From contig CALRFF010000002.1 of NCBI GenBank assembly GCA_943356495.1, positions 99,826 through 163,825 on the forward strand: DNA of 64,000 bases, in the 5' to 3' direction. Positions 1-61,142 of this stretch are shown here, piece by piece. The position numbers and the translations under genes were made by a program. This DNA comes from Candidatus Nomurabacteria bacterium. GTDB lineage: Bacteria; Patescibacteriota; Minisyncoccia; Phycocordibacterales; SBAW01. Below the pieces are notes generated by a model. It saw only the letters and a program-made list of their open reading frames with translations. It was not told where the DNA came from and made no database searches. Position 1 is the stretch's first letter. Every line of letters starts with the position of its first letter.

Positions 1-1
1 C

Positions 2-154
2 AAAGACAACGGCGCTCCTGGCTATCGCCCGCAGTATCATCCAGGCTACTACGCCGCATTTGTGCTTGACCTTGATGGCTACAACATAGAGGCTGTGTGG
101 GATGACTTGGAAAAGCTAAAAGAAGGTGGATTTATAGCCCCTCATGACCTCTAA
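2..154 (+). CDS. VOC/glyoxalase-family protein, C-terminal fragment (5' end outside window)
   Basis: Frame 2 runs open from the window start to TAA at 152-154. The translation ...YHPGYYAAFVLDLDGYNIEAVWDD... matches the conserved C-terminal beta-strands of VOC/glyoxalase proteins. Confidence 0.45.
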   Translation, partial: KDNGAPGYRPQYHPGYYAAFVLDLDGYNIEAVWDDLEKLKEGGFIAPHDL

Positions 155-935
155 TATTGAAAAAAGCGTCGAGGTTTTTAATGAGACAGTCCAACCCGAA
201 GGTTGGAGTATGAATGTACGTTTGGATTTGAGGGGGAAGATATTTGAGAATGGGGCTAACTATTTAGAGACAAGGAAAGATTTACTTCTCGCAATGTGTC
301 TCAACAATGGCTACTACAAAAGAGAGAATGTATATCGGATGTTGAAGTTTGGGCTTGCTTTTTCAGACCGCGTACAAATTTTTACTACTGACGGCCCCGC
401 TAGACATAACTATCGGGCGCTTGGAAGACCTGAAAACGAAATCATTCGGGACACTCGCCTTGCACGCAATCGCCTCCGCAATCAATGTGTCGAGGGATTA
501 AAAAGGATAAATGATGAACTCGCTTCTGATAAACAAAGGCTGGTTTCGTTCTTAGATTGGGAGGATATTTACGGGGATATGTCTTACAAAGATTCGTACG
601 CTACATTGAAAGATTTATTTGGCACAAATTCTGACTTCCGTGCGGACGTTGAGAAGACCTCTAAAAAGGTTCTTTTAAACCGTATGGGTATAAAAAGAGA
701 TATAGATGCGGCTGTTTCAACAGCTACTGAGTATGTATTAGAAGAACTTGCTTTTATTCTTTCCTACCACTCTCTCAACTCTAAAACCAAACCTATAGCT
801 GACCATGGGCAGAGCTCGTTTAATTATATTTATTACGAGCCATGGTCTGTTTTTGAAAATCTTGTAAATGGGACATACAACGCTCAACCCAAAGAAGGGA
901 TAGGATTTGTTGTTGCACACATCGAGAGTAAATAG
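144..935 (+). CDS. hypothetical protein (263 aa), possible partner of the downstream reverse transcriptase
   Basis: Long ORF in a lower-GC segment with no recognisable motif. Its start overlaps the preceding stop by 11 nt. The RT gene lies 360 nt downstream on the same strand. Confidence 0.5.
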   Translation: MTSNIEKSVEVFNETVQPEGWSMNVRLDLRGKIFENGANYLETRKDLLLAMCLNNGYYKRENVYRMLKFGLAFSDRVQIFTTDGPARHNYRALGRPENEIIRDTRLARNRLRNQCVEGLKRINDELASDKQRLVSFLDWEDIYGDMSYKDSYATLKDLFGTNSDFRADVEKTSKKVLLNRMGIKRDIDAAVSTATEYVLEELAFILSYHSLNSKTKPIADHGQSSFNYIYYEPWSVFENLVNGTYNAQPKEGIGFVVAHIESK

Positions 936-1297
936 GGGGCAAATCGGCTTGACTGTGGGTCTCCTTGTGTGATAATGGACAGTGGCTGAAGAAATAAATA
1001 TCGGGGCGAAGAGGTAAACCTCCAAGTTCCGTCGCTCGGTGCAGTCGTCCTTCGGATGGTGTTGACAAAAACACTATGAAAAGGGATAATTACACCGCAG
1101 CCACGAGTGTTTGGTTTTTCGGAATCAACATTCGGTTCTGCTCGATTAGAGCGCCACCAGTTGGCGACGACATTGGGCATCGAAGGCAAGGTTGTCGCAA
1201 GACGCCTTGCCGACATCGAGACTAAAAGGTAACGCTCGGCGTCTCGTCCTCGAAGAAACGCGCACTCGGCGCGTTTTTTCATTACACTGGTAATCCT
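936..1297 (+). ncRNA. candidate structured noncoding region upstream of the RT (possible RT-associated ncRNA)
   Basis: 362-nt gap with no ORF. It contains imperfect direct repeats (cgctcggtgcagtcgtccttcgg at about 1036 and cgctcggcgtctcgtcctcgaag at about 1227). It ends in a GC hairpin gcgcactcggcgcg followed by a T6 run just before the RT start codon. Confidence 0.25.
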
Positions 1298-2530
1298 ATG
1301 GCTGCTGATAAAAGTATCTTCTCTAAAGAAGCCTTAAAAAAGGCATGGAGGCGTATTTATCGCTCCAAATCAAAACGTAAAAGGAATACTTCTCGTGGTA
1401 TTGACGGGATTACAATTCAACAATTTAAGGACAACGAGGCAGAGTATATAGATACACTCTGGAAAGACTTACAAACAGATTCATTTCGTTTCCAAAAACT
1501 CTACGCCTATCAGCAGAAAAAGCCGGGCAAGAAAAAGCCTCGGTTGATTCAAGCCCCTACAGTAAGAGATCGTGTCGTGTTGTCGGTAATAAATAATTAT
1601 TTAGGACAACGACAGCCTGCCGACTCTTTCCGAGATTTAGGAATAGTCGGTTCAGTGAAAGGTACAACCCCTCGGCGTATTGTACGAGAGGTGCTTTCTT
1701 ACGAGAGTGAGGGATTTATCGCAGTCTTTAAAACTGACATAAAAGATTACTTTCCGTCGGTGGATATACCACGACTCAAACGGATGATGAACTCTCTTCT
1801 AAAGGAAGAGGTCTATTTACGCAAACTTATATTCGACTTTTTAAACATAAATAAAGAGAGAGGGCTTGCCCAAGGGTCGGCTATTTCTCCTCTGTTGGCG
1901 AATATTTACCTACGTGCGTTTGATAAAAAACTAGCCAACCGCAAAGACATCAAGCACTTACGATATGTGGATGACATCATCGTTTTTGCAAAAGAGAAAC
2001 GAAAAGCAAAGGAGGTATATAAACCTATAAAAGTGCAACTGTGGGGTAGAGGTCTCTCTATTCATTCTTTGTCGAGCAGGTCTAAGACGCAAACAGGCAT
2101 GCTCCGTTCTGGTGTCATTGATGTACTCGGCGTACGTTTTACGAAGCAAGGACTAAAAATAAAACAGAGTAAAGTTGATGGTTTTCGTAAAGAGGTAATC
2201 GGTAAGTTAAAGCCAGCAGTAATTCTTAAAGATGGAGACAAGAGTGTGCCTCAAAATCTTCGAGAGTATATTGAAAAACTCAATCATCGTATTAGAGGAT
2301 GGGGTAGTGCGTATGCCCTGTGCGACGAAGAAGAACTCTATACCCAATTGGATACGGAGATCCACGGTCGGCTAAATGCGCTTTTAGATTCCCTTTCAAC
2401 ACCTAGAGGAAAAGGTAGGCCAAGACTATTTCTGGATTCCTCTAAAAGGAAAAAGTTGTTGTTTTCGGTTGCTAAGTTAGAAAGCATCCGTATAAAAGTC
2501 CGCAGTAGCGCCCGATGGATGAGGAAATAG
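1298..2530 (+). CDS. reverse transcriptase, group-II-intron-like / retron-like (not DGR type), with thumb/X-like motif
   Basis: RT motif 0 is RGIDGITIQQF. Motif 2 is PTVRDRVV. Motif 4 is AQGSAISPLLANIYL (QGxxxSP). Motif 5 is RYVDDIIVFA (YxDD). The C-terminal RIRGWGSAY resembles the maturase domain-X RGWxxYY motif. No intron domain V/VI is seen downstream and there is no room upstream for domains I-III. Confidence 0.85.
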   Translation: MAADKSIFSKEALKKAWRRIYRSKSKRKRNTSRGIDGITIQQFKDNEAEYIDTLWKDLQTDSFRFQKLYAYQQKKPGKKKPRLIQAPTVRDRVVLSVINNYLGQRQPADSFRDLGIVGSVKGTTPRRIVREVLSYESEGFIAVFKTDIKDYFPSVDIPRLKRMMNSLLKEEVYLRKLIFDFLNINKERGLAQGSAISPLLANIYLRAFDKKLANRKDIKHLRYVDDIIVFAKEKRKAKEVYKPIKVQLWGRGLSIHSLSSRSKTQTGMLRSGVIDVLGVRFTKQGLKIKQSKVDGFRKEVIGKLKPAVILKDGDKSVPQNLREYIEKLNHRIRGWGSAYALCDEEELYTQLDTEIHGRLNALLDSLSTPRGKGRPRLFLDSSKRKKLLFSVAKLESIRIKVRSSARWMRK

Positions 2531-2533
2531 AAC

Positions 2534-2725
2534 CTAGCGTAGAGATTTATAGATCTCGGTTAGGTCTTTTACCGTAACATAAAACTCAGTACCGTCGCCT
2601 GTAATCTTCTTATCGGCAAGGTCTCTGACCATTTGCCCCATGATTTTCTGCTTTTTCTTTGATAGAGTGGAATATAGGTCGAGGAATCTACACTCTGCCT
2701 TTCGGTCGTTGAAGACCCTTTTCAT
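2534..2725 (-). CDS. small hypothetical protein (63 aa), translationally coupled to the serine recombinase
   Basis: Its start overlaps the recombinase stop by 4 nt on the same strand. The product is charged and basic. Confidence 0.4.
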   Translation of the reverse strand: MKRVFNDRKAECRFLDLYSTLSKKKQKIMGQMVRDLADKKITGDGTEFYVTVKDLTEIYKSLR

Positions 2726-4293
2726 CGGGCGTTAACATCATTAATGTTGTTAACATCCCCAACCATCTTGGCGACTAGACTTTGGGCTTCATAATAGGTT
2801 CTCACTTCGTCCACTACTCGGCACCAGAAGGGAAACTGCAAGTCGGAACCCGACCGCCTCGCGGACTCGGCGGTCAAAGCCCATAGTGTTTTCGGGCTGA
2901 ATTCAAATTGGCGATTTCGCAGAATATGGTTCGCGCCGATGTTTTTCAGAAATGCTGTCATGCCGCGGAAGTCGTTGCGGGAAAGCAGATTCGCGGCTTG
3001 ATTCAAGGACAAAACGAATTCACGAGCCGGTTCGAGCCAAGACACGCCTCTCTGCTCGATGTCGGTGATTTTTTCACCGATTCTCACTTTCTCGTTCACG
3101 AGCAGGTTCTTTTTGGCGGCGTATTCAGCTGTGGATAACGCGTCGTTCAGATATGCGTCCAGCAACTTTTCGAGCTTTGCATCTATATCTGTGACTTGTG
3201 TTTTCAGTTGCTGGACTTCACCTCGTGCTTCTTCTTTCGCCTGTGCCTCATCCTGCTCCAACGCCGCCAAAACCTTCTGCGTGTCTTGGCTCGACAAAGA
3301 AACTTTTTGTAGAAACAATTTGATTTGTTCTGTCAGCGCGGCTTCGCGTACATAATGCTTTTCGGTACATGCGCCTCGTTTCTTGGTACAGCGGTAGTAG
3401 GTGTAGATGCCGCCGTTGCCTTTCGCATATTGGGCGGTGATGGAGGCACCGCACGAGGCGCATTTCATGAGGCCGAGAAACGCGAAGTCGTTTTTGCGAA
3501 CTTCCTGCACCTTGCCGCGCTTGGCTAAAACTTCTTGGCATTTGTCAAAAAGTTTCTTTGTCAGAATCGGTTCGTGAGTTCCCTCAAAAATTTCCGACTT
3601 GAACCGCATAAGGCCGATGTAGAAGGGGTTTTGGAGTAGTTTTTGAACATTGCCCACCACGATTGTTTTGCCTCGGTGTCCCCGCAGGTTGTGCTCCTTG
3701 CACCAATTTGCGAGAGAGTAAAGAGTGTGGGCTCCAGTGGCGTACAGTTCAAAAAGTTTCCTCACTTTCGGTGACTTTTCGGCGTCCACATCAATACCGC
3801 GTGTGTTTGCATTGTTCAAGTACCCCACCGGAGCCCAGCCGGGCCATACGCCGTTTCGTATCTTTTGCCGCAAACCGCGCTTTACGTTCTCTCGCAAATT
3901 GTCAGAGAAGTATTTGGATTGCCCAAAAGCAATGTTCAGCATAAATAGTCCTTGTGGTGTCGGTTCAAACCAAAACGTCGGAAATTTGAGGGAACGAATC
4001 AAGCCGCGATCCACCATGTGGATGATTTTGCCTCCGTCCACGCTATTGCGAGCAAGGCGGTCAGGATGCCACGAGATAATCCCCTCTGCTTTCCCGCTCT
4101 CAATCAATGACAGCATTTCTGCGAATTTCATTCGCCCGGGCTCCTTGGCGGTTTTCGCCTCGCAGAACGAGGCGACAATATCAAATTTTTCTTTGGCGGA
4201 ATACTCTTGCAGCTCTGCGAGCTGCGCTTCAATGCTTAATACCTGCCGGTCATCTTCTTCGGTGGATTTGCGAGCGTAGAGTACATATTTCAT
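2722..4293 (-). CDS. large serine recombinase (resolvase/integrase family)
   Basis: N-terminal MKYVLYARKSTEEDDRQVLSIEAQ matches the YAR-S-T catalytic serine motif of resolvase domains. The recombinase domain, a zinc-ribbon (CASCGAS...YYRC) and a C-terminal coiled coil are present, typical of 500+ aa large serine recombinases. Confidence 0.9.
   Translation of the reverse strand: MKYVLYARKSTEEDDRQVLSIEAQLAELQEYSAKEKFDIVASFCEAKTAKEPGRMKFAEMLSLIESGKAEGIISWHPDRLARNSVDGGKIIHMVDRGLIRSLKFPTFWFEPTPQGLFMLNIAFGQSKYFSDNLRENVKRGLRQKIRNGVWPGWAPVGYLNNANTRGIDVDAEKSPKVRKLFELYATGAHTLYSLANWCKEHNLRGHRGKTIVVGNVQKLLQNPFYIGLMRFKSEIFEGTHEPILTKKLFDKCQEVLAKRGKVQEVRKNDFAFLGLMKCASCGASITAQYAKGNGGIYTYYRCTKKRGACTEKHYVREAALTEQIKLFLQKVSLSSQDTQKVLAALEQDEAQAKEEARGEVQQLKTQVTDIDAKLEKLLDAYLNDALSTAEYAAKKNLLVNEKVRIGEKITDIEQRGVSWLEPAREFVLSLNQAANLLSRNDFRGMTAFLKNIGANHILRNRQFEFSPKTLWALTAESARRSGSDLQFPFWCRVVDEVRTYYEAQSLVAKMVGDVNNINDVNAR
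2821..2921. repeat. IR-A: 101-bp perfect inverted repeat, copy inside the 3' end of the recombinase gene (partner at 4351..4451)
   Basis: The reverse complement of 2821-2921 equals 4351-4451 exactly. The recombinase C-terminal peptide NRQFEFSPKTLWALTAESARRSGSDLQFPFWC is therefore also encoded on the plus strand at 4351-4451. Confidence 0.9.
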
Positions 4294-4350
4294 GGCTTTT
4301 GGTACTTAAGAATTGGGAATAAGGAATGACCAAAAATTATTTTTCCCGAA

Positions 4351-4451
4351 TGCGAAATCGCCAATTTGAATTCAGCCCGAAAACACTATGGGCTTTGACC
4401 GCCGAGTCCGCGAGGCGGTCGGGTTCCGACTTGCAGTTTCCCTTCTGGTGC
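4351..4451. repeat. IR-A': partner of IR-A, abutting IR-B with a shared GTGC junction at 4448-4451
   Basis: Direct sequence comparison with the reverse complement of 2821-2921. Confidence 0.9.
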
Positions 4452-4551
4452 AGAATACTTGCATTAGTGCGAACCAGCCGCGCCGCCGGTGGCGGGGGCG
4501 GCGGCGCGGCGGGCCCCTTGCAAAAAACGCAGGCGGCGCAGCCGCTCCGCT
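4448..4551. repeat. IR-B: 104-bp perfect inverted repeat (partner at 5663..5766)
   Basis: The reverse complement of 5663-5766 equals 4448-4551. The stretch is G/C-rich (ccgccggtggcgggggcggcggcgcggcgggcc). Confidence 0.9.
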
Positions 4552-4690
4552 CGAAAACCGCCAAGGAGCCCGGAAAACATCGGCGCGAACTCATATTCTT
4601 CATAGGAATTCGGGAAAAATAATTTTTGGCCATACAATACTGAAATTAGCTTGTATATACAGGGTATTTTGGCATTTGCCCCAGGCGGGC

Positions 4691-4719
4691 TTGACAGGAT
4701 AGGCAAGGTATGCTATCCT
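4691..4719 (+). promoter_or_regulatory. candidate sigma70 promoter for ORF 4772..5443
   Basis: TTGACA at 4691-4696, a 17-nt spacer, then TATCCT at 4714-4719, about 50 nt upstream of the ORF. Confidence 0.35.
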
Positions 4720-4771
4720 ATACGCAGACGAACCAATCAACCGCGCTGAGGCGCAACCCTAGGAGGGGAAC

Positions 4772-5443
4772 ATGAAAGCTGTATTCTACCGTCATAACGA
4801 AACGTTGGCGGCTCTGGTTGCGAAGGCCAATCCTGATTTCGTCCATGAGTTTCCTGCCGAGATGTCCGTCGAGGACATTAAGCAAGAGCTCCTGACACGA
4901 AAGGCAGTGAAGCCGCTTATGGAACTAGTCTTCCCGCCAGACAATTCTTTCCACGATTGCGAGGTGCATGTGGACGGGACGGTCATGGCAGCCGGGATTG
5001 ACACGGTTCTCTGGCAACCATGTTCGCTTCACCTCATCCGTCAAGACAATGTGGGGGCGTACGATTGGTACGCTACCCGTGTTGCCGAAGCGGCCAATCT
5101 TTCCAGCCGAGTTATTGTGGTCAGCGATAGAATCGCGGACCACAATAGCGAAGCACTTTCTTCTCGAGAGGACTTCAGCCGTTACCAAACGGATGAAACG
5201 TATCGAGCGGAGGTGGAAAACTTGGTCGTCGCAAAATGGGTGGAGCGACTGGCGAAGCATGGAATCACTCCTGAAGTCGTCAACGTCGGCACGTTCCGTG
5301 GAATGCTTCTCTCAGGCGCCGTGGTGGTCTGTGATCATCACAATGGCGATATCTGTGAGCTCGAGGATTCCGTTGGATCAAGGGGAGGAATTTGGTTTAA
5401 TGCCTTCCCTTCATGTGGCGATGACGATTTTCTGGCCATGTAG
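4772..5443 (+). CDS. hypothetical protein (223 aa) lying between IR-B and IR-B'
   Basis: ORF preceded by an AGGAGG ribosome-binding site (ctaggaggggaacATG). No recognisable motif. Confidence 0.5.
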   Translation: MKAVFYRHNETLAALVAKANPDFVHEFPAEMSVEDIKQELLTRKAVKPLMELVFPPDNSFHDCEVHVDGTVMAAGIDTVLWQPCSLHLIRQDNVGAYDWYATRVAEAANLSSRVIVVSDRIADHNSEALSSREDFSRYQTDETYRAEVENLVVAKWVERLAKHGITPEVVNVGTFRGMLLSGAVVVCDHHNGDICELEDSVGSRGGIWFNAFPSCGDDDFLAM

Positions 5444-5662
5444 CTGGATCGGAGCGGGTTGATACCCCGCTTGGCAACAGAAGGTTCGAGTACTCGCAAG
5501 AGGCAGTAGGACCAAAACAATCATCGCGAAGCCACGCCGCGATTCATAAATTGTCTGCAAGCCATCTCTCACGAGGTGGCTTTCTTCTTTTTGTAAAAGA
5601 ACAATGCGGTATGCGCTCCGCGCATTCAAAATTTTTCCGCCAAAGAAAAATCTGATATTGTC

Positions 5663-5766
5663 AGCGGAGCGGCTGCGCCGCCTGCGTTTTTTGCAAGGGG
5701 CCCGCCGCGCCGCCGCCCCCGCCACCGGCGGCGCGGCTGGTTCGCACTAATGCAAGTATTCTGCAC
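5663..5766. repeat. IR-B': partner of IR-B
   Basis: Direct sequence comparison. Confidence 0.9.
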
Positions 5767-5768
5767 AA

Positions 5769-5795
5769 AATAATCCCCGAAAGGGGATTATTTGA
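5769..5795 (+). terminator. rho-independent terminator-like hairpin
   Basis: taatcccc-GAAA-ggggatta stem-loop followed by TTTG. Confidence 0.4.
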
Positions 5796-5817
5796 TGTCT
5801 GCTACAATAGACCCGTC

Positions 5818-6816
5818 ATGAAGTTATTTATCGCGCCAATTATAATTTCGCTGGTGGCGCTCGGCGCCGTGTATCTGTGGGGGGGACTCCCGGCTTTTAT
5901 ACTTGCCGCCCTGCTCTCGGTGCTCGAAATTACGCTCTCGTTTGACAACGCGGTCGTTAACGCCAAAGTGCTCGCACAAATGAGCGAGCGCTGGCAACGC
6001 CGGTTCTTAACGTGGGGCATCTTGGTAGCCGTGTTTGGCACTCGTCTTGTTTTGCCGGCAATTATCGTCGGGCTTGCCGCGTGGATATCGCCGCTTGCGG
6101 CAGCAGCCCTAGCTTTCGAGGATCCGGCGGCGTACGCGCACCTTCTTGAGGCGGCATCGCCCGCCATTAACGCCTTCGGCGGTGTCTTTTTGCTTATGGT
6201 GTCGCTCAAATACTTTTTCGATGTGGGTAAAAAAGTGCACTGGATAGCATGGATAGAGCGCTACTTGGCGCGCTGGGGCAGGGTAGAGGCTATCGAGCTG
6301 GCTATCGCGCTTGCTACGCTGCTCGGGCTTTCGTATCTTGCCGACAATCAGGCGCAGGTACTAGCCGCCGGCACCATAGGCTTGCTTACCTTTGTGGTTA
6401 TGCAGGGCATTACGAGCACGCTCGATTTTAAGGCCGGGCAGGTGGTGGCCGGAGGCGGCGTGCTATTTATATATCTCAACATTTTAGACTCGGCCTTTTC
6501 GCTCGACGGGGTGGTGGGCGCGTTCGCGCTTACTACGCAAATCCCCATTATCTTTGTGGGTCTTGGTATAGGCGCGTACTTCGTCCGCTCCATTACCGTA
6601 TATCTGGTGCGCCGCAAGACGCTCGAGGCCCTGCGTTATCTCGAGCACGGCGCGCATTGGGCGATACTCGGTCTCGGGCTCTCGATGCTGGTGGGTATTA
6701 TTGTCCACGTCCCCGAGGTAATCACCGGTCTTATAGGGTTGGTGTTCGTAACCTTGGCGTATGTGTCATCGCGCCGGGCGATACCCTCGCAAAAAACACT
6801 GGAGTCTTTGGGTTAG
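5818..6816 (+). CDS. TerC/DUF475-like integral membrane protein
   Basis: Multi-pass membrane protein with the LEITLSFDNAVVNA motif, which is the TerC-family LSxDN signature. Confidence 0.55.
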   Translation: MKLFIAPIIISLVALGAVYLWGGLPAFILAALLSVLEITLSFDNAVVNAKVLAQMSERWQRRFLTWGILVAVFGTRLVLPAIIVGLAAWISPLAAAALAFEDPAAYAHLLEAASPAINAFGGVFLLMVSLKYFFDVGKKVHWIAWIERYLARWGRVEAIELAIALATLLGLSYLADNQAQVLAAGTIGLLTFVVMQGITSTLDFKAGQVVAGGGVLFIYLNILDSAFSLDGVVGAFALTTQIPIIFVGLGIGAYFVRSITVYLVRRKTLEALRYLEHGAHWAILGLGLSMLVGIIVHVPEVITGLIGLVFVTLAYVSSRRAIPSQKTLESLG

Positions 6817-57393: not shown

Positions 57394-57667
57394 GACCTCT
57401 ACAAGATATGTTGATCACAAAAGACCTTATGAAGCGCCATCGGTAAGCCCTTCGGGTTTTGCCTGCGGCCGCTTCGAAAGAAGCGGTTTTTTGTTTCAAG
57501 GATATCTTCGGCCTTTGACAACTGAATTCTGTCACGCAGCACCACGTTTGAGACGTGGGTCTTTTGTGGGTGTGGAGACAGGCAGGTAAAAAAATCAAAA
57601 AGAAGAAAAGTAGAACAACAAATTATTGCGGTCCTTAAGTCCTCTTCTCTCAAACAAAGGGAAGAGA

Positions 57668-60935
<3,268 letters not shown>

Positions 60936-61030
60936 TTCGCCTCCCGCAAGGGAGGCGGGGAGAAGAGGATATTGAGGATCGCAATAATTTGTTGTTACCT
61001 TACTTTTGATTTTTTTTGGACTTTGTACTC

Positions 61031-61142
61031 TGGTGGTTCAACGGCGGGGTCACACCCGTTCTCTTTCCGAACACGGAAGTTAAGCTCGCTAGTGGCGATG
61101 GTAGTCACTGTTACAGGTGGCCAGAGTAGCTAACCGCCAGAG
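61031..61142 (+). rRNA. rrf: 5S ribosomal RNA
   Basis: tctggtggttcaacggcggggtcacacccgttctctttccgaacacggaagttaagctcgctagtggcgatggtagtcactg...ccagagtagctaaccgccaga matches the 5S consensus (helix I pairing tctggtgg/ccgccaga, loop C ccgaac). Confidence 0.85.

Follow-up and report, generated by a model that had tools for sequence, protein, structure and literature searches.

Which group of bacterial reverse transcriptases (RTs), if any, can claim a stand-alone RT gene preceded by a structured-looking noncoding stretch, and what might that stretch do for the enzyme? The question is raised by positions 144–2530 of a 64,000-nt stretch of DNA (the whole of it is referred to below as the window), for which a sequence-only reading proposed a retron or DRT-type module made of an ncRNA, an RT and an effector protein, or, alternatively, a free-standing repair RT of the G2L type. 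The issue reaches beyond a single genome: the RT–ncRNA defence systems include gene synthesis in DRT2, homopolymer synthesis in DRT9 (a UG28 RT with an ncRNA, producing poly-dA) and telomerase-like repeat addition in DRT10, and such systems now figure in the debate on the origin of telomerase.

A family search among ~15 billion proteins yielded eight intact or near-intact loci, including that of the window. The comparison of these loci strongly supports the view that the noncoding stretch is a conserved, covarying structured RNA partnered with the RT. What is new is this ~285-nt RNA partner of an RT lineage confined to Patescibacteria as far as its members are named, all of the named ones coming from this group.

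Layout of the locus and its neighbors

The coordinates read from the sequence were correct: an ORF of 263 aa (144–935), a gap (936–1297) and an ORF of 410 aa encoding the RT (1298–2530), both ORFs lying on the plus strand. The “360-nt ORF-free stretch” is real as a gap, of 362 nt, but strictly speaking it is not free of ORFs, since it contains a 49-codon ORF on the plus strand and a 132-aa ORF on the minus strand. The latter (884–1282) is not conserved and was rejected as a gene: an in-frame stop interrupts it in locus L001, in L002 it is broken into pieces, and the substitutions in this frame are free of codon periodicity. The “repeats” noticed in the gap represent the arms of stem-loops, and a repeat array was ruled out.

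A large serine recombinase gene is indeed present nearby (2722–4293, minus strand); it is located outside the RNA–RT module. The lower GC content, seen earlier as consistent with a mobile defence island, does not set the module apart: the housekeeping genes upstream share a GC of 0.38–0.47 over at least 10 kb, and the shift to ~0.55 falls at the recombinase. The low-GC island argument was rejected because the upstream housekeeping genes have equal GC. On the other side of the module, a convergent gene ends 3 nt past the RT stop codon.

The 263-aa protein had been considered novel, but the Pfam model CDPS (PF16715; 64.8 bits, cut-off 27) and TIGR04539 (93.1 bits, cut-off 45) place it in the cyclodipeptide synthase (CDPS) family. 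The residues Tyr197 and Glu201 of the YxxxE motif are conserved, as is Tyr230/231 downstream of it, and the position of the catalytic Ser aligns with Cys52, invariant in 18 of 18 clade members, which could act as the nucleophile in place of Ser. A tripartite system with the CDPS as the effector of an ncRNA–RT defence module would be attractive, as it would put a tRNA-dependent enzyme beside an RT–RNA pair, and the two genes are adjacent on the same strand in this one genome. At the same time, the CDPS gene closes a co-directional housekeeping operon, where its start overlaps a glyoxalase-like gene by 11 nt, and the promoter-like element P1 (see below) sits between it and the RNA. CDPS genes are missing from all seven other RT loci, and no RT was found near the CDPS homologs elsewhere (45–60% identity), which reside in unrelated contexts. 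The tripartite arrangement is hardly credible in the light of these data, and the CDPS was rejected as an RT partner on comparative genomic context, which indicates that the gene at 144–935 is unrelated to the RT and is not a part of the module. For annotation, the lesson is that a neighboring CDPS is not to be read as an effector. Of the proposed ncRNA–RT–effector architecture, the structured RNA paired with a stand-alone RT has survived, and the 263-aa protein as its third part has not.

The reverse transcriptase and its relation to the known groups

The 410-aa RT (1298–2530, plus strand) comprises an N-terminal extension, fingers–palm, thumb and C-terminal helices, with no endonuclease or other domain fused to it. 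The group-II-like motifs and thumb recognized in the sequence-only reading were confirmed (Pfam RVT_1, 73.7 bits; GIIM, 22.4 bits); the protein carries motifs 0–7, with YVDD at the active site, and a thumb with the RGW motif. The active site is YVDD in the window RT and in its relatives P0002, P0003, P0005 and P0147, and YIDD in P0004 and P0148, with the other invariant RT motifs kept across the family. Since these motifs are retained and the AlphaFold2 model has a pLDDT of 93.4, the RT looks intact and catalytically competent.

The best fold matches of the model are the G2L4 RT (TM 0.70) and the GsI-IIC RT (TM 0.73), and the best sequence match among solved structures is G2L4 (106 bits). In the phylogeny, suggested earlier as a check, all 50 bootstraps recover the family as monophyletic, and 21 of them have UG17 as its sister group. 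The family is thus a rare lineage that had not been classified before and that resembles the RTs of group II introns; it lies between the latter and UG17, matching no named group.

The likeness to the RT/maturases of mobile group II introns includes the N-terminal extension, motifs 0–7 and the RGW thumb scored by GIIM. A group II intron was nevertheless rejected: TIGR04416 gave 148.2 bits (cut-off 300), ribozyme domains were not detected, the En domain is missing, and, unlike in a mobile intron, there is no room downstream of the RT for domains V and VI. The absence of intron RNA around the RT, claimed from the sequence, was confirmed by Rfam, which returned no match at E ≤ 1 in positions 1–6000 of the window.

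With G2L4 (PMC11761039), the window RT shares a length of ~410 aa, the lack of an intron around a stand-alone RT, and a β-branched residue (V or I) at the second position of the active site. It differs by YVDD in place of YIDD and by a missing 9-aa “knot” insertion in RT3a (R190, R191), the RT3a being shorter than in group II RTs; G2L4 membership was rejected on the absence of this knot and on YVDD. The structural paper on G2L4 makes no mention of non-coding RNA (0 occurrences; PMC11761039), whereas the family described here is always accompanied by a dedicated RNA. Hence, the G2L-type alternative was apt for the fold of the protein, but not in implying an RT without an RNA partner. G2L4 and group II RTs, the nearest solved relatives by fold and sequence, either lack a dedicated ncRNA or use an intron, which speaks against the RNA-copying module favored below.

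The best-scoring RT model of the defence library was RT_UG17 (166.3 bits, profile positions 5–318 of 429). UG17 is the RT of DRT10, where it is combined with SLATT-5 and a ~140-nt ncRNA (Tang et al. 2025, PMC12632851; Sanchez-Nieto et al. 2026, bioRxiv 10.64898/2026.04.29.721553). As in DRT10, the RT measures ~400 aa, has YVDD and carries nothing fused to it, and its structured ncRNA lies upstream on the same strand. In contrast to DRT10, the RNA is about twice as long and directly precedes the RT, and the named hosts are Patescibacteria and not Pseudomonadota, Bacteroidota or Bacillota. Calibration of the PADLOC model gave 390.5 bits for a bona fide UG17 (P0170) and 118–172 bits for unrelated group-II-like RTs; strong UG17 matches made up six of the 100 nearest neighbors of the RT. 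Neither Pfam nor PADLOC scans found SLATT among the neighbors in the window, and the called neighbors at the other loci carry other domains. Membership in UG17/DRT10 was rejected on the score (166 vs. 390 bits) and the missing SLATT.

DRT2 is formed by a UG2 RT and an ncRNA under one promoter and accomplishes synthesis of the neo gene (PMC11100668). Both DRT2 and DRT9 resemble the present locus in the combination of one RT gene with one upstream ncRNA of a few hundred nucleotides and no separate effector, but their RTs are far more distant (PDB profile scores of 50–58 bits, TM 0.50–0.63). DRT2 membership was rejected at 55.1 bits for NCBIfam Drt2 (cut-off 390) and 64.8 bits for the PADLOC model; the conserved antisense stop-free frame of DRT2 is missing as well. 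The retron reading also failed, as the retron RT models remained far below their cut-offs: St85, the best one, gave 74.2 bits (cut-off 235), and the PADLOC retron RTs at most ~59 bits. UG38, a UG/Abi group borne by CPR (Mestre et al. 2022, PMC9226505), is similar in its Candidate Phyla Radiation hosts and in being small, rare and known from metagenomes only. It was rejected, too: RT_UG38 scored 68.5 bits with the window RT and 59.5 bits with P0147, covering only a part of the protein.

The structured RNA upstream of the reverse transcriptase

The RNA-then-RT layout recurs in all eight intact loci, where a gene-free stretch of 260–445 nt lies immediately upstream of the RT on the same strand. 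In the window, the structured noncoding RNA of ~285 nt extends over 1000–1283 (plus strand), its true 5′ end probably being near 984, and includes six stem-loops and a terminal hairpin with a T-run. The final structure was composed of local helices common to three MFE folds and then checked on L002. An RNAalifold run on two sequences gave a long-range pairing replacing the first stem-loop and was superseded by the local helices; a long-range 5′–3′ pairing is predicted in the window and L001, where it excludes the conserved SL1, but L002 does not retain it. In retrons, a1/a2 inverted repeats flank the msr-msd RNA, which also has a branching G; such a G was not assignable here.

The covariance model R1, seeded on the window and L001, aligned L002, which had not been used to derive the structure, over its full length (115 bits, E = 5e-32); in the R1 alignment, 96.9% of cells are paired. 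The covariance check proposed earlier for the intergenic stretch thus revealed a structured RNA with compensatory changes: 24 of 79 base pairs are changed on both sides, vs. 9.1 ± 2.3 in shuffles and 0–3 in slid controls, in a count that covers only the three close loci (window, L001, L002, i.e., clade A) and an alignment that was fitted to R1 and therefore favors the structure. No Rfam family matched the RNA, and the covariance search found one copy in the 64-kb window. R1 did not recover the RNAs of clade B; for these, MAFFT with RNAalifold retrieved only SL1 and one further hairpin, the rest not being alignable.

Upstream of the RNA lies P1 (949–976, plus strand), a promoter-like element (TTGACT, 16 nt, TG-n-GATAAT) ending 26 nt before SL1. 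Its equivalent is found 10–26 nt upstream of the 5′ hairpin in five of the eight loci (window, L001, L002, L118, L121), and by its consensus match only it is the probable promoter of the RNA. SL1 (1002–1031, plus strand) is a two-tier 5′ hairpin with an outer stem of 5–6 bp and an inner stem of 4–6 bp separated by a purine-rich symmetric internal loop. It is the sole RNA element recognizable in all eight loci, with the same fold (z from −1.9 to −5.9), compensatory changes in both stems and covariation in clade B, too.

SL2 (1038–1096, plus strand; helices 3 and 4) is a long irregular hairpin with seven pairs changed on both sides. It includes the internal promoter-like element P2 (1062–1090, plus strand; TTGACA, 17 nt, GATAAT), which matches the consensus at 11 of 12 positions and is found in seven of the eight loci. 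The distance from the end of its −10 element to the RT ATG is 203–208 nt in clade A, 136 nt in L118 and 47–48 nt in L004, L120 and L121. P2 is probably the promoter of the RT mRNA; since it is internal to the RNA, a part of the “RNA” would double as the leader of this mRNA, which speaks against the two-component module favored below.

The 49-codon open frame (1076–1225, plus strand) starts with an ATG in the P2 spacer and stops in the SL6 loop. These features bring to mind DRT2, where rolling-circle reverse transcription joins copies of the template, and here a similar joining would turn a silent promoter and frame into an expressed gene. In support of this reading, the layout of a single RT gene with an upstream ncRNA is that of DRT2, clade A has a strong promoter-like motif inside the RNA, and a chromosomal P2 transcript would lack the ATG located in the spacer. 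None of the three clade-A loci has a stop within this reading frame, and its substitutions follow a weak coding-like pattern: a slight synonymous excess (8, 6 and 7 vs. 1–3 in other frames) and a slight third-position excess (37/41/64), the amino-acid identity being only 0.52–0.61. On the other hand, the frame is not longer than in shuffles (P = 0.15–0.57), its in-frame TGA in L001 falls within the −35 element, and clade B lacks a comparable frame. The DRT2 neo is antisense to the ncRNA, whereas the minus-strand frame here has the above-mentioned stop in L001 and no periodicity; the DRT2 models reach but 55–65 bits, and the DRT2 fold match (TM 0.50) is the weakest among the RT classes. Such a mechanism is considered very improbable.

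The three following elements are all on the plus strand. SL3 (1104–1134; helix 5) is a 13-bp hairpin with one bulged U and five pairs changed on both sides; L001 and L002 have a GNRA tetraloop at its tip. SL4 (1139–1179; helices 6 and 7, seen in three individual MFE folds) is built of an outer stem around an inner hairpin, where CGCCA/TGGCG is replaced with CACC/GGTG or CGCCTC/GAGGCG. SL5 (1185–1211; helix 8) is a stable stem with five of eight pairs changed on both sides, differing in sequence and length (GGCAAGG/CCTTGCC, GGCAACGG/CCGTTGCC, GGTAGGA/TCCTACC).

SL6 (1217–1246, plus strand; helix 9 and the alignment) has the stem CGAGAC/GTCTCG, or CAGGAC/GTCTTG in L002, and its loop, CUAARAGGUAAC, is the best-conserved single-stranded block, a candidate protein-contact or template site. 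It figures in a telomerase-style, DRT10-like possibility: a short template in the loop (UAA-AAGG-UAA, a 7-nt unit) would be copied repeatedly to give tandem-repeat DNA such as (CCTTTTA)n. Every clade-A locus has UAA|RAGG|UAA in this block, which, as the template loops of DRT10, comes just after stable stems; YVDD is common to UG17 and the window RT, and UG17 is both the best PADLOC model and the sister group in the bootstraps cited above. The UG17 score, however, is within the ordinary range of group-II-like RTs, the SLATT gene is missing, and the RNA has about twice the size of DRT10 RNAs. A DRT10-type scan for A-B-A′ patterns showed them to be no commoner or longer than in shuffles (P = 0.3–0.8), and chance alone would produce a 3-nt repeat. 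Repeated copying of the loop appears distinctly unlikely. More generally, the RNA yielded no identifiable template, priming site or motif for resetting repeats, which also speaks against the two-component module favored below.

A related view holds that the family is a deep sister lineage of the telomerase-related UG17/DRT10 RTs, a minimal two-part system of Patescibacteria with RNA features that become functional only in cDNA. The RNA would then hold the template, joined in clade A by a promoter and the short frame, and DNA synthesis would make the effector, be it repeat DNA or a sense-oriented analog of the DRT2 neo. This view, too, is deemed unlikely.

The terminal hairpin with a T-run (1252–1280, plus strand; helix 10), spotted already in the sequence-only reading, is formed by GAAGAAACGCGC / ACTCG / GCGCGTTTTTTC and ends 17 nt before the RT start codon. 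In clade A, it resembles an intrinsic terminator; in clade B, a hairpin without the T-run is followed by CCAACCAAA. Overall, a stem-loop directly before the RT ATG is present in eight of eight loci.

Possible functions of the RT–RNA pair

The explanation we lean to, with slightly better than even confidence, is that the RNA (~984/1000–1283) and the RT gene (1298–2530) constitute a two-component RT–ncRNA module that copies its own RNA, likely for defence. The RNA would be transcribed from P1 and fold into the six stem-loops and the terminal hairpin, and the RT would be translated from read-through transcripts or from those starting at P2. The RT would bind its own RNA, the likeliest anchors being the two-tier SL1 and the stem-loop beside the start codon, and take a segment of this RNA as the template for cDNA. 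Because no third gene is conserved, the cDNA product itself might take the effector part, in parallel with DRT2 and DRT9, which are also single-gene systems, and its likely role would be defence against phages or other mobile elements. That the RNA is expressed, forms an RNP with the RT and is copied into cDNA, and that the pair acts in defence, are all predictions. The characterized RTs with a cis-encoded upstream ncRNA, DRT2 and DRT10, reverse-transcribe a part of this RNA (PMC11100668, PMC12632851), and so, as cited in these two papers, does DRT9.

The RNA could instead serve as a cis-acting leader and attenuator controlling RT expression. The RT itself would then resemble G2L4 in having cellular DNA or RNA as its substrate, and this RNA would not be its template. 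An example would be an RT binding a stem-loop next to its own start codon. Group II intron RTs bind the DIVa stem-loop, which overlaps their own start codon, and repress their own translation; the stem-loop beside the RT start codon in the present family recalls this DIVa site. The leader role is in line with the fold and sequence of the RT, closest to G2L4 and group II RTs, and with the clade-B members having YIDD, as in G2L4. Likewise, a hairpin precedes the ATG in all loci, its clade-A version is similar to an attenuating terminator, and the short distance from P2 to the ATG at three clade-B loci would leave the last stem-loop in the mRNA leader. It is harder to reconcile with the extent of the RNA: the 285 nt contain six covarying helices and a terminal hairpin and have a promoter in front of them, far beyond what known RT leaders need. 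Moreover, SL1, the most conserved element, is upstream of P2 and hence outside the P2 mRNA; the window RT has YVDD and lacks the RT3a insertion defining G2L4, and G2L4-type RTs have not been reported with such an RNA. The leader role is regarded as rather unlikely.

Either outcome would be of interest. If the RNA is a template, the family would represent a new branch of RNA-templated DNA synthesis and a compact RT–RNA pair of possible use as a tool; if it is a regulator only, its elaboration would be unusual among domesticated group-II-like RTs.

Distribution and genomic context

The family is tiny (n = 8 loci, of which three are close enough for pair counting), which weakens the case for the two-component module. 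No further members came up when GTDB representative genomes, JGI metagenomes and IMG/VR were scanned; the hits were the one Patescibacteria MAG again and, at 23–31% identity, unrelated RTs of group II or Campylobacter. No paper on RT-based systems in Patescibacteria was found in the literature library searched.

The flanking genes differ from locus to locus and include ClpB, an ABC-F ATPase, GreA and RM genes; an all-against-all comparison of the flanking ORFs of the eight loci found no third gene in common. Such varied contexts, along with two damaged copies (L117 and L121) and the group II type of the fold and thumb, would suit a decayed or non-intron retroelement, i.e., a group II remnant or a selfish self-copying element without a host function. 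Yet ribozyme domains and an endonuclease domain are lacking, and the 64-kb window holds a single copy of the RNA. Furthermore, RNA structure and RT motifs are both conserved down to 37% protein identity, which points to selection on both parts. A retroelement of this kind is, on balance, highly doubtful.

As to the defence role surmised for the two-component module, neighbors of the RM or nuclease type occur at three of the eight loci only, the others having housekeeping genes: an MmeI-like RM gene and an OLD-type ATPase lie before L118, Dcm/HpaII/Vsr come after L002, and L004 is preceded by genes for a DNA methylase and an HNH protein.

Organization of the RT Locus

The reverse transcriptase (RT) encoded near the beginning of the window forms, together with the RNA upstream of it, a real two-part RNA–RT module; the lineage, so far undescribed, has RTs similar to those of group II introns. 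The RT itself (410 aa, 1298–2530, + strand; Pfam RVT_1, 73.7 bits) possesses the active site YVDD and a thumb weakly matching Pfam GIIM. It is separated from a 263-aa ORF (144–935, +) by a 362-nt gap (936–1297), closed by a hairpin with a T-run (1252–1280, 17 nt from the RT start), and is followed by the gene of a large serine recombinase (2722–4293, − strand; domain match). The two ORFs and the gap were recovered at the positions given in the initial sequence-only reading. Its claim that no intron RNA surrounds the RT held as well: the Rfam scan of positions 1–6000 yielded zero matches at E ≤ 1, and a 63-aa ORF (2534–2725, −), convergent with the RT, ends 3 nt past the RT stop; hence, group II intron domains have left no signal here, nor would there be space for them. 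The 63-aa ORF and the recombinase gene share 4 nt at the recombinase stop, and the two are probably transcribed together; neither this ORF nor a 223-aa ORF further downstream (4772–5443, +) found a match in Pfam, PADLOC or NCBIfam.

The RT Family and Its Affiliation

The word-indexed search of 5.8 billion clusters returned only four relatives of the RT (39–67% identity), the next matches being group II maturases at 25–30%. Two further full-length members and several fragments came from the exhaustive profile search of 1.84 billion representatives, after which scores of about 440 bits gave way to scores below 200 bits; scanning GTDB representative genomes, JGI metagenomes and IMG/VR yielded no further members. 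The retrieved loci in which the RT is intact or nearly so number eight, comprising clade A (the window, L001 and L002; RTs at 54–67% identity) and clade B (L003, L004, L118, L120 and L121; about 37–39% identity to the window RT). In L121 (926–2076), the RT is split into ORFs of 174 and 144 aa, and an RNA-like region with the first stem-loop is kept upstream. A damaged copy in another locus (L117, 1377–2897) joins the C-terminal two thirds of the RT to an unrelated N-terminus of 270 aa. RTs of Campylobacter concisus (L006–L017, L019), recovered via the same N-terminal peptide pattern, display 23–32% identity.

Where named, the hosts of the family are Patescibacteria MAGs. The 23S rRNA match in the window (57662–60928) spans 3,267 nt against a model of 2,925 positions, and the resulting insertion of about 340 nt fits this lineage, since CPR rRNAs frequently carry insertions. 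A 5S rRNA lies 3′ of it (61029–61142); no 16S rRNA was found within the window.

The top PADLOC model for the window RT was RT_UG17 (166 bits). UG17 corresponds to DRT10, in which an ncRNA, a SLATT-5 effector and an RT form a tripartite system producing tandem-repeat cDNA (PMC12632851). In the calibration of this model, a true UG17 scored 390 bits and generic group-II-like RTs 118–172 bits, so the window RT falls within the generic range and its membership in UG17 was rejected. It was likewise not assigned to UG38, a CPR-borne group of the UG/Abi survey (PMC9226505), scoring only 68.5 bits on that model, and the models of retron, DRT2, DRT3 and group II RTs all remained far below their cut-offs, so that the retron option raised earlier is not supported. 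Among the nearest 100 non-family proteins, there were 6 strong UG17 matches, 3 UG26 and about 10 proteins scoring strongly as group II maturases; about 80 had no strong match.

Against solved structures, the family profile scored 106 bits for each of the G2L4 and GsI-IIC RTs, 58 for DRT9 and 50 for DRT2. The AlphaFold2 model of the window RT (pLDDT 93.4) superposed best on the GsI-IIC RT (TM 0.73) and G2L4 (TM 0.70), followed by a DGR RT (0.64), DRT9 (about 0.6) and DRT2 (0.50). Of the G2L-type alternative suggested initially, the likeness of the fold was thus retained; the hallmarks of G2L4, YIDD and a 9-aa RT3a insertion (PMC11761039), are both lacking from the window RT: its active site is YVDD, and its RT3a is short. 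In the rough neighbor-joining phylogeny, the family was monophyletic in 50/50 bootstraps; its sister group was unstable, being UG17 in 21/50 and unassigned group-II-like RTs in the rest. The family is therefore treated as an unclassified lineage whose RTs are similar to those of group II introns; a link to UG17 is possible.

The Upstream Structured RNA

At every one of the eight loci, a gene-free stretch of 260–445 nt directly precedes the RT on the same strand. In clade A, this stretch displays a mean column identity of 75%. A consensus structure was assembled from the local helices common to the three individual MFE folds, and a covariance model was seeded on the window and L001; L002, excluded from model building, aligned to it over the full length (115 bits, E = 5e-32). 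In the alignment of the three sequences, paired cells amounted to 96.9%, and both sides were changed in 24 of 79 base pairs vs. 9.1 ± 2.3 in shuffles (0 of 500 reaching 24) and 0–3 with the partner column slid, these counts coming from three sequences only and from an alignment fitted to the model. The structure comprises, on the + strand, six stem-loops, SL1 (1002–1031), SL2 (1038–1096), SL3 (1104–1134), SL4 (1139–1179), SL5 (1185–1211) and SL6 (1217–1246), and the terminal hairpin (1252–1280).

The clade-B RNAs were not reached by the clade-A model and aligned poorly. SL1 has an identical two-tier hairpin fold in 8/8 loci, with compensatory changes in both of its stems, and a stem-loop just 5′ of the RT ATG is likewise present in all eight. 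Judging by this covariation, the stretch upstream of the RT is a conserved structured RNA, so that the covariance check proposed for 936–1297 in the sequence-only reading came out in favor of a structured RNA.

Promoter-Like Elements and Open Frames

Two promoter-like elements, both consensus matches only, accompany the RNA: P1 (949–976 in the window, +), situated 10–26 nt 5′ of SL1 in five loci, and P2 (1062–1090, +), situated inside the RNA in seven. In clade A, the −10 of P2 ends 203–208 nt before the RT ATG; in three clade-B loci, this distance is exactly 47–48 nt. In the simplest reading, P1 would give rise to the RNA and P2 to the RT mRNA, as its driver or booster. The position of P2 and the hairpin adjoining the RT ATG also suit the main rival explanation, in which the RT behaves as G2L4 does and the RNA serves its mRNA as an elaborate leader or attenuator; this seems rather unlikely given how large the RNA is, that it has a putative promoter to itself and that SL1 is located 5′ of P2.

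The coding ALTERNATIVES of the upstream stretch was assessed by comparing a minus-strand 132-aa frame and a plus-strand 49-codon frame across clade A. The former (884–1282) was rejected as a gene, and with it an antisense neo frame like that of DRT2: it contains stops in L001, is split in L002 and lacks codon periodicity. The 49-codon frame (1076–1225, +), whose ATG lies within the P2 spacer, is open in the same frame in 3/3 clade-A loci. Its substitutions lean to third positions (37/41/64), and its synonymous codon changes number 8, 6 and 7 vs. 1–3 in the other frames, a pattern that appears weakly coding-like. The amino-acid identity is only 0.52–0.61 (the RT, as a control, has 48 synonymous vs. 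28 non-synonymous changes), the open length does not exceed that of shuffles (P = 0.15–0.57), and clade B has no counterpart. A sense-oriented neo analogue using P2 and this frame is at most a weakly supported possibility.

Possible Mode of Operation

What the comparison shows is an intact RT and a covarying RNA in fixed position and orientation, amid varied neighbors. The characterized bacterial RTs with an upstream ncRNA encoded in cis, those of DRT2 and DRT10, bind this ncRNA and reverse-transcribe a part of it (PMC11100668, PMC12632851); the same holds for DRT9 as cited in these papers. In the single-gene systems, the DNA product acts as the effector. Because these RTs bind and copy their upstream ncRNA, templated cDNA synthesis is proposed here: the RT would assemble with the upstream RNA into a ribonucleoprotein and make cDNA templated by this RNA, probably for defense. 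On balance, we lean modestly towards this reading.

The loop of SL6, CUAARAGGUAAC, is the best-conserved single-stranded block. It can be parsed as UAA|RAGG|UAA, a 7-nt A-B-A′ unit 3′ of stable stems, as is the corresponding unit of DRT10. Still, A-B-A′ patterns in the RNA are not enriched over shuffles, so the loop as a template is a lead rather than a finding.

Defense-type neighbors (restriction-modification or nuclease-type) occur at 3/8 loci, L118, L002 and L004. L118 is the clearest defense-island context in the family: at 984–5563, a fused MmeI-like gene for restriction-modification and an ATPase of the OLD family (AAA_15/AAA_21 plus TOPRIM) are located immediately 5′ of the RNA–RT unit.

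Genomic Surroundings and the CDPS Gene

The small low-GC defense island envisaged initially was not confirmed: the GC content of the RT module (0.39–0.47) is shared by the housekeeping genes that precede it over at least 10 kb, and the remaining about 60 kb of the window are at about 0.55. The switch is sharp and occurs exactly at the recombinase (window ~2750), the low-GC block of at least 11 kb (~0.41–0.47; L110 1–11300) harboring the housekeeping genes, the 263-aa ORF and the RT. This switch marks either where a large integrated element ends or a chimeric join in the assembly, and it does not affect the RNA–RT unit, which is wholly within the low-GC block.

Scrambled copies of the recombinase's 3′ end surround it in inverted orientation. 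Its 3′ coding end recurs upstream of the gene as an inverted 125-nt copy (93%; 2797–2921/4351–4475), a perfect 104-nt inverted repeat (4448–4551/5663–5766) flanks the 223-aa ORF, smaller inverted pairs lie within 2929–4633, and 4326–4633 is a palindromic patchwork of recombinase fragments. An independent short Logan assembly (contig L111) ends inside the recombinase gene at most about 130 nt from its 3′ end, just short of the first repeat arm. These nested repeats may represent a segment capable of inversion, a scar left by recombination or an artefact of the assembly.

The 263-aa protein, thought at first to be novel, belongs to a known family, the cyclodipeptide synthases (CDPS), matching Pfam CDPS (64.8 bits, cut-off 27) and TIGR04539, tRNA-dependent cyclodipeptide synthase (93.1 bits, cut-off 45). 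In the longer source contig, its ORF, which shares 11 nt with the glyoxalase-like gene before it, is the last of a co-directional housekeeping run (HIT, Ham1, tRNA-binding protein, ProB-PUA, NUDIX). No RT was found near its homologues (about 25 at 45–60% identity, the three named ones all from Patescibacteria) in the contexts inspected, and no CDPS adjoins the RT relatives among the retrieved loci. The all-against-all comparison of flanking ORFs found no third protein common to the eight loci, only incidental overlaps: an ABC-F ATPase in L002 and L003 and a Dcm methylase in L002 and L004. Overall, the CDPS is neither novel nor a component of the RNA–RT module. Of the proposed ncRNA–RT–effector architecture, the RNA–RT pair stands (8/8 loci) and the effector falls away; a tripartite retron- or DRT-type system with a CDPS effector gives place to the two-part module with no conserved third gene.

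The ABC-F ATPases upstream of the RT in L002 (2–1015) and L003 (5567–7027), one clade-A and one clade-B locus, share 61% identity, a hint that the chromosomal location is old and partly syntenic rather than the outcome of repeated recent transfer. In the CDPS, the canonical nucleophilic Ser of the G-x-S motif is replaced by Cys52 (LLAMCLNNGYY), invariant in 18/18 aligned members, and the catalytic Tyr, Glu and Tyr are retained in this clade, whose named members are Patescibacteria. Judging from these residues, the Cys52 clade may represent a thioester-using CDPS variant.
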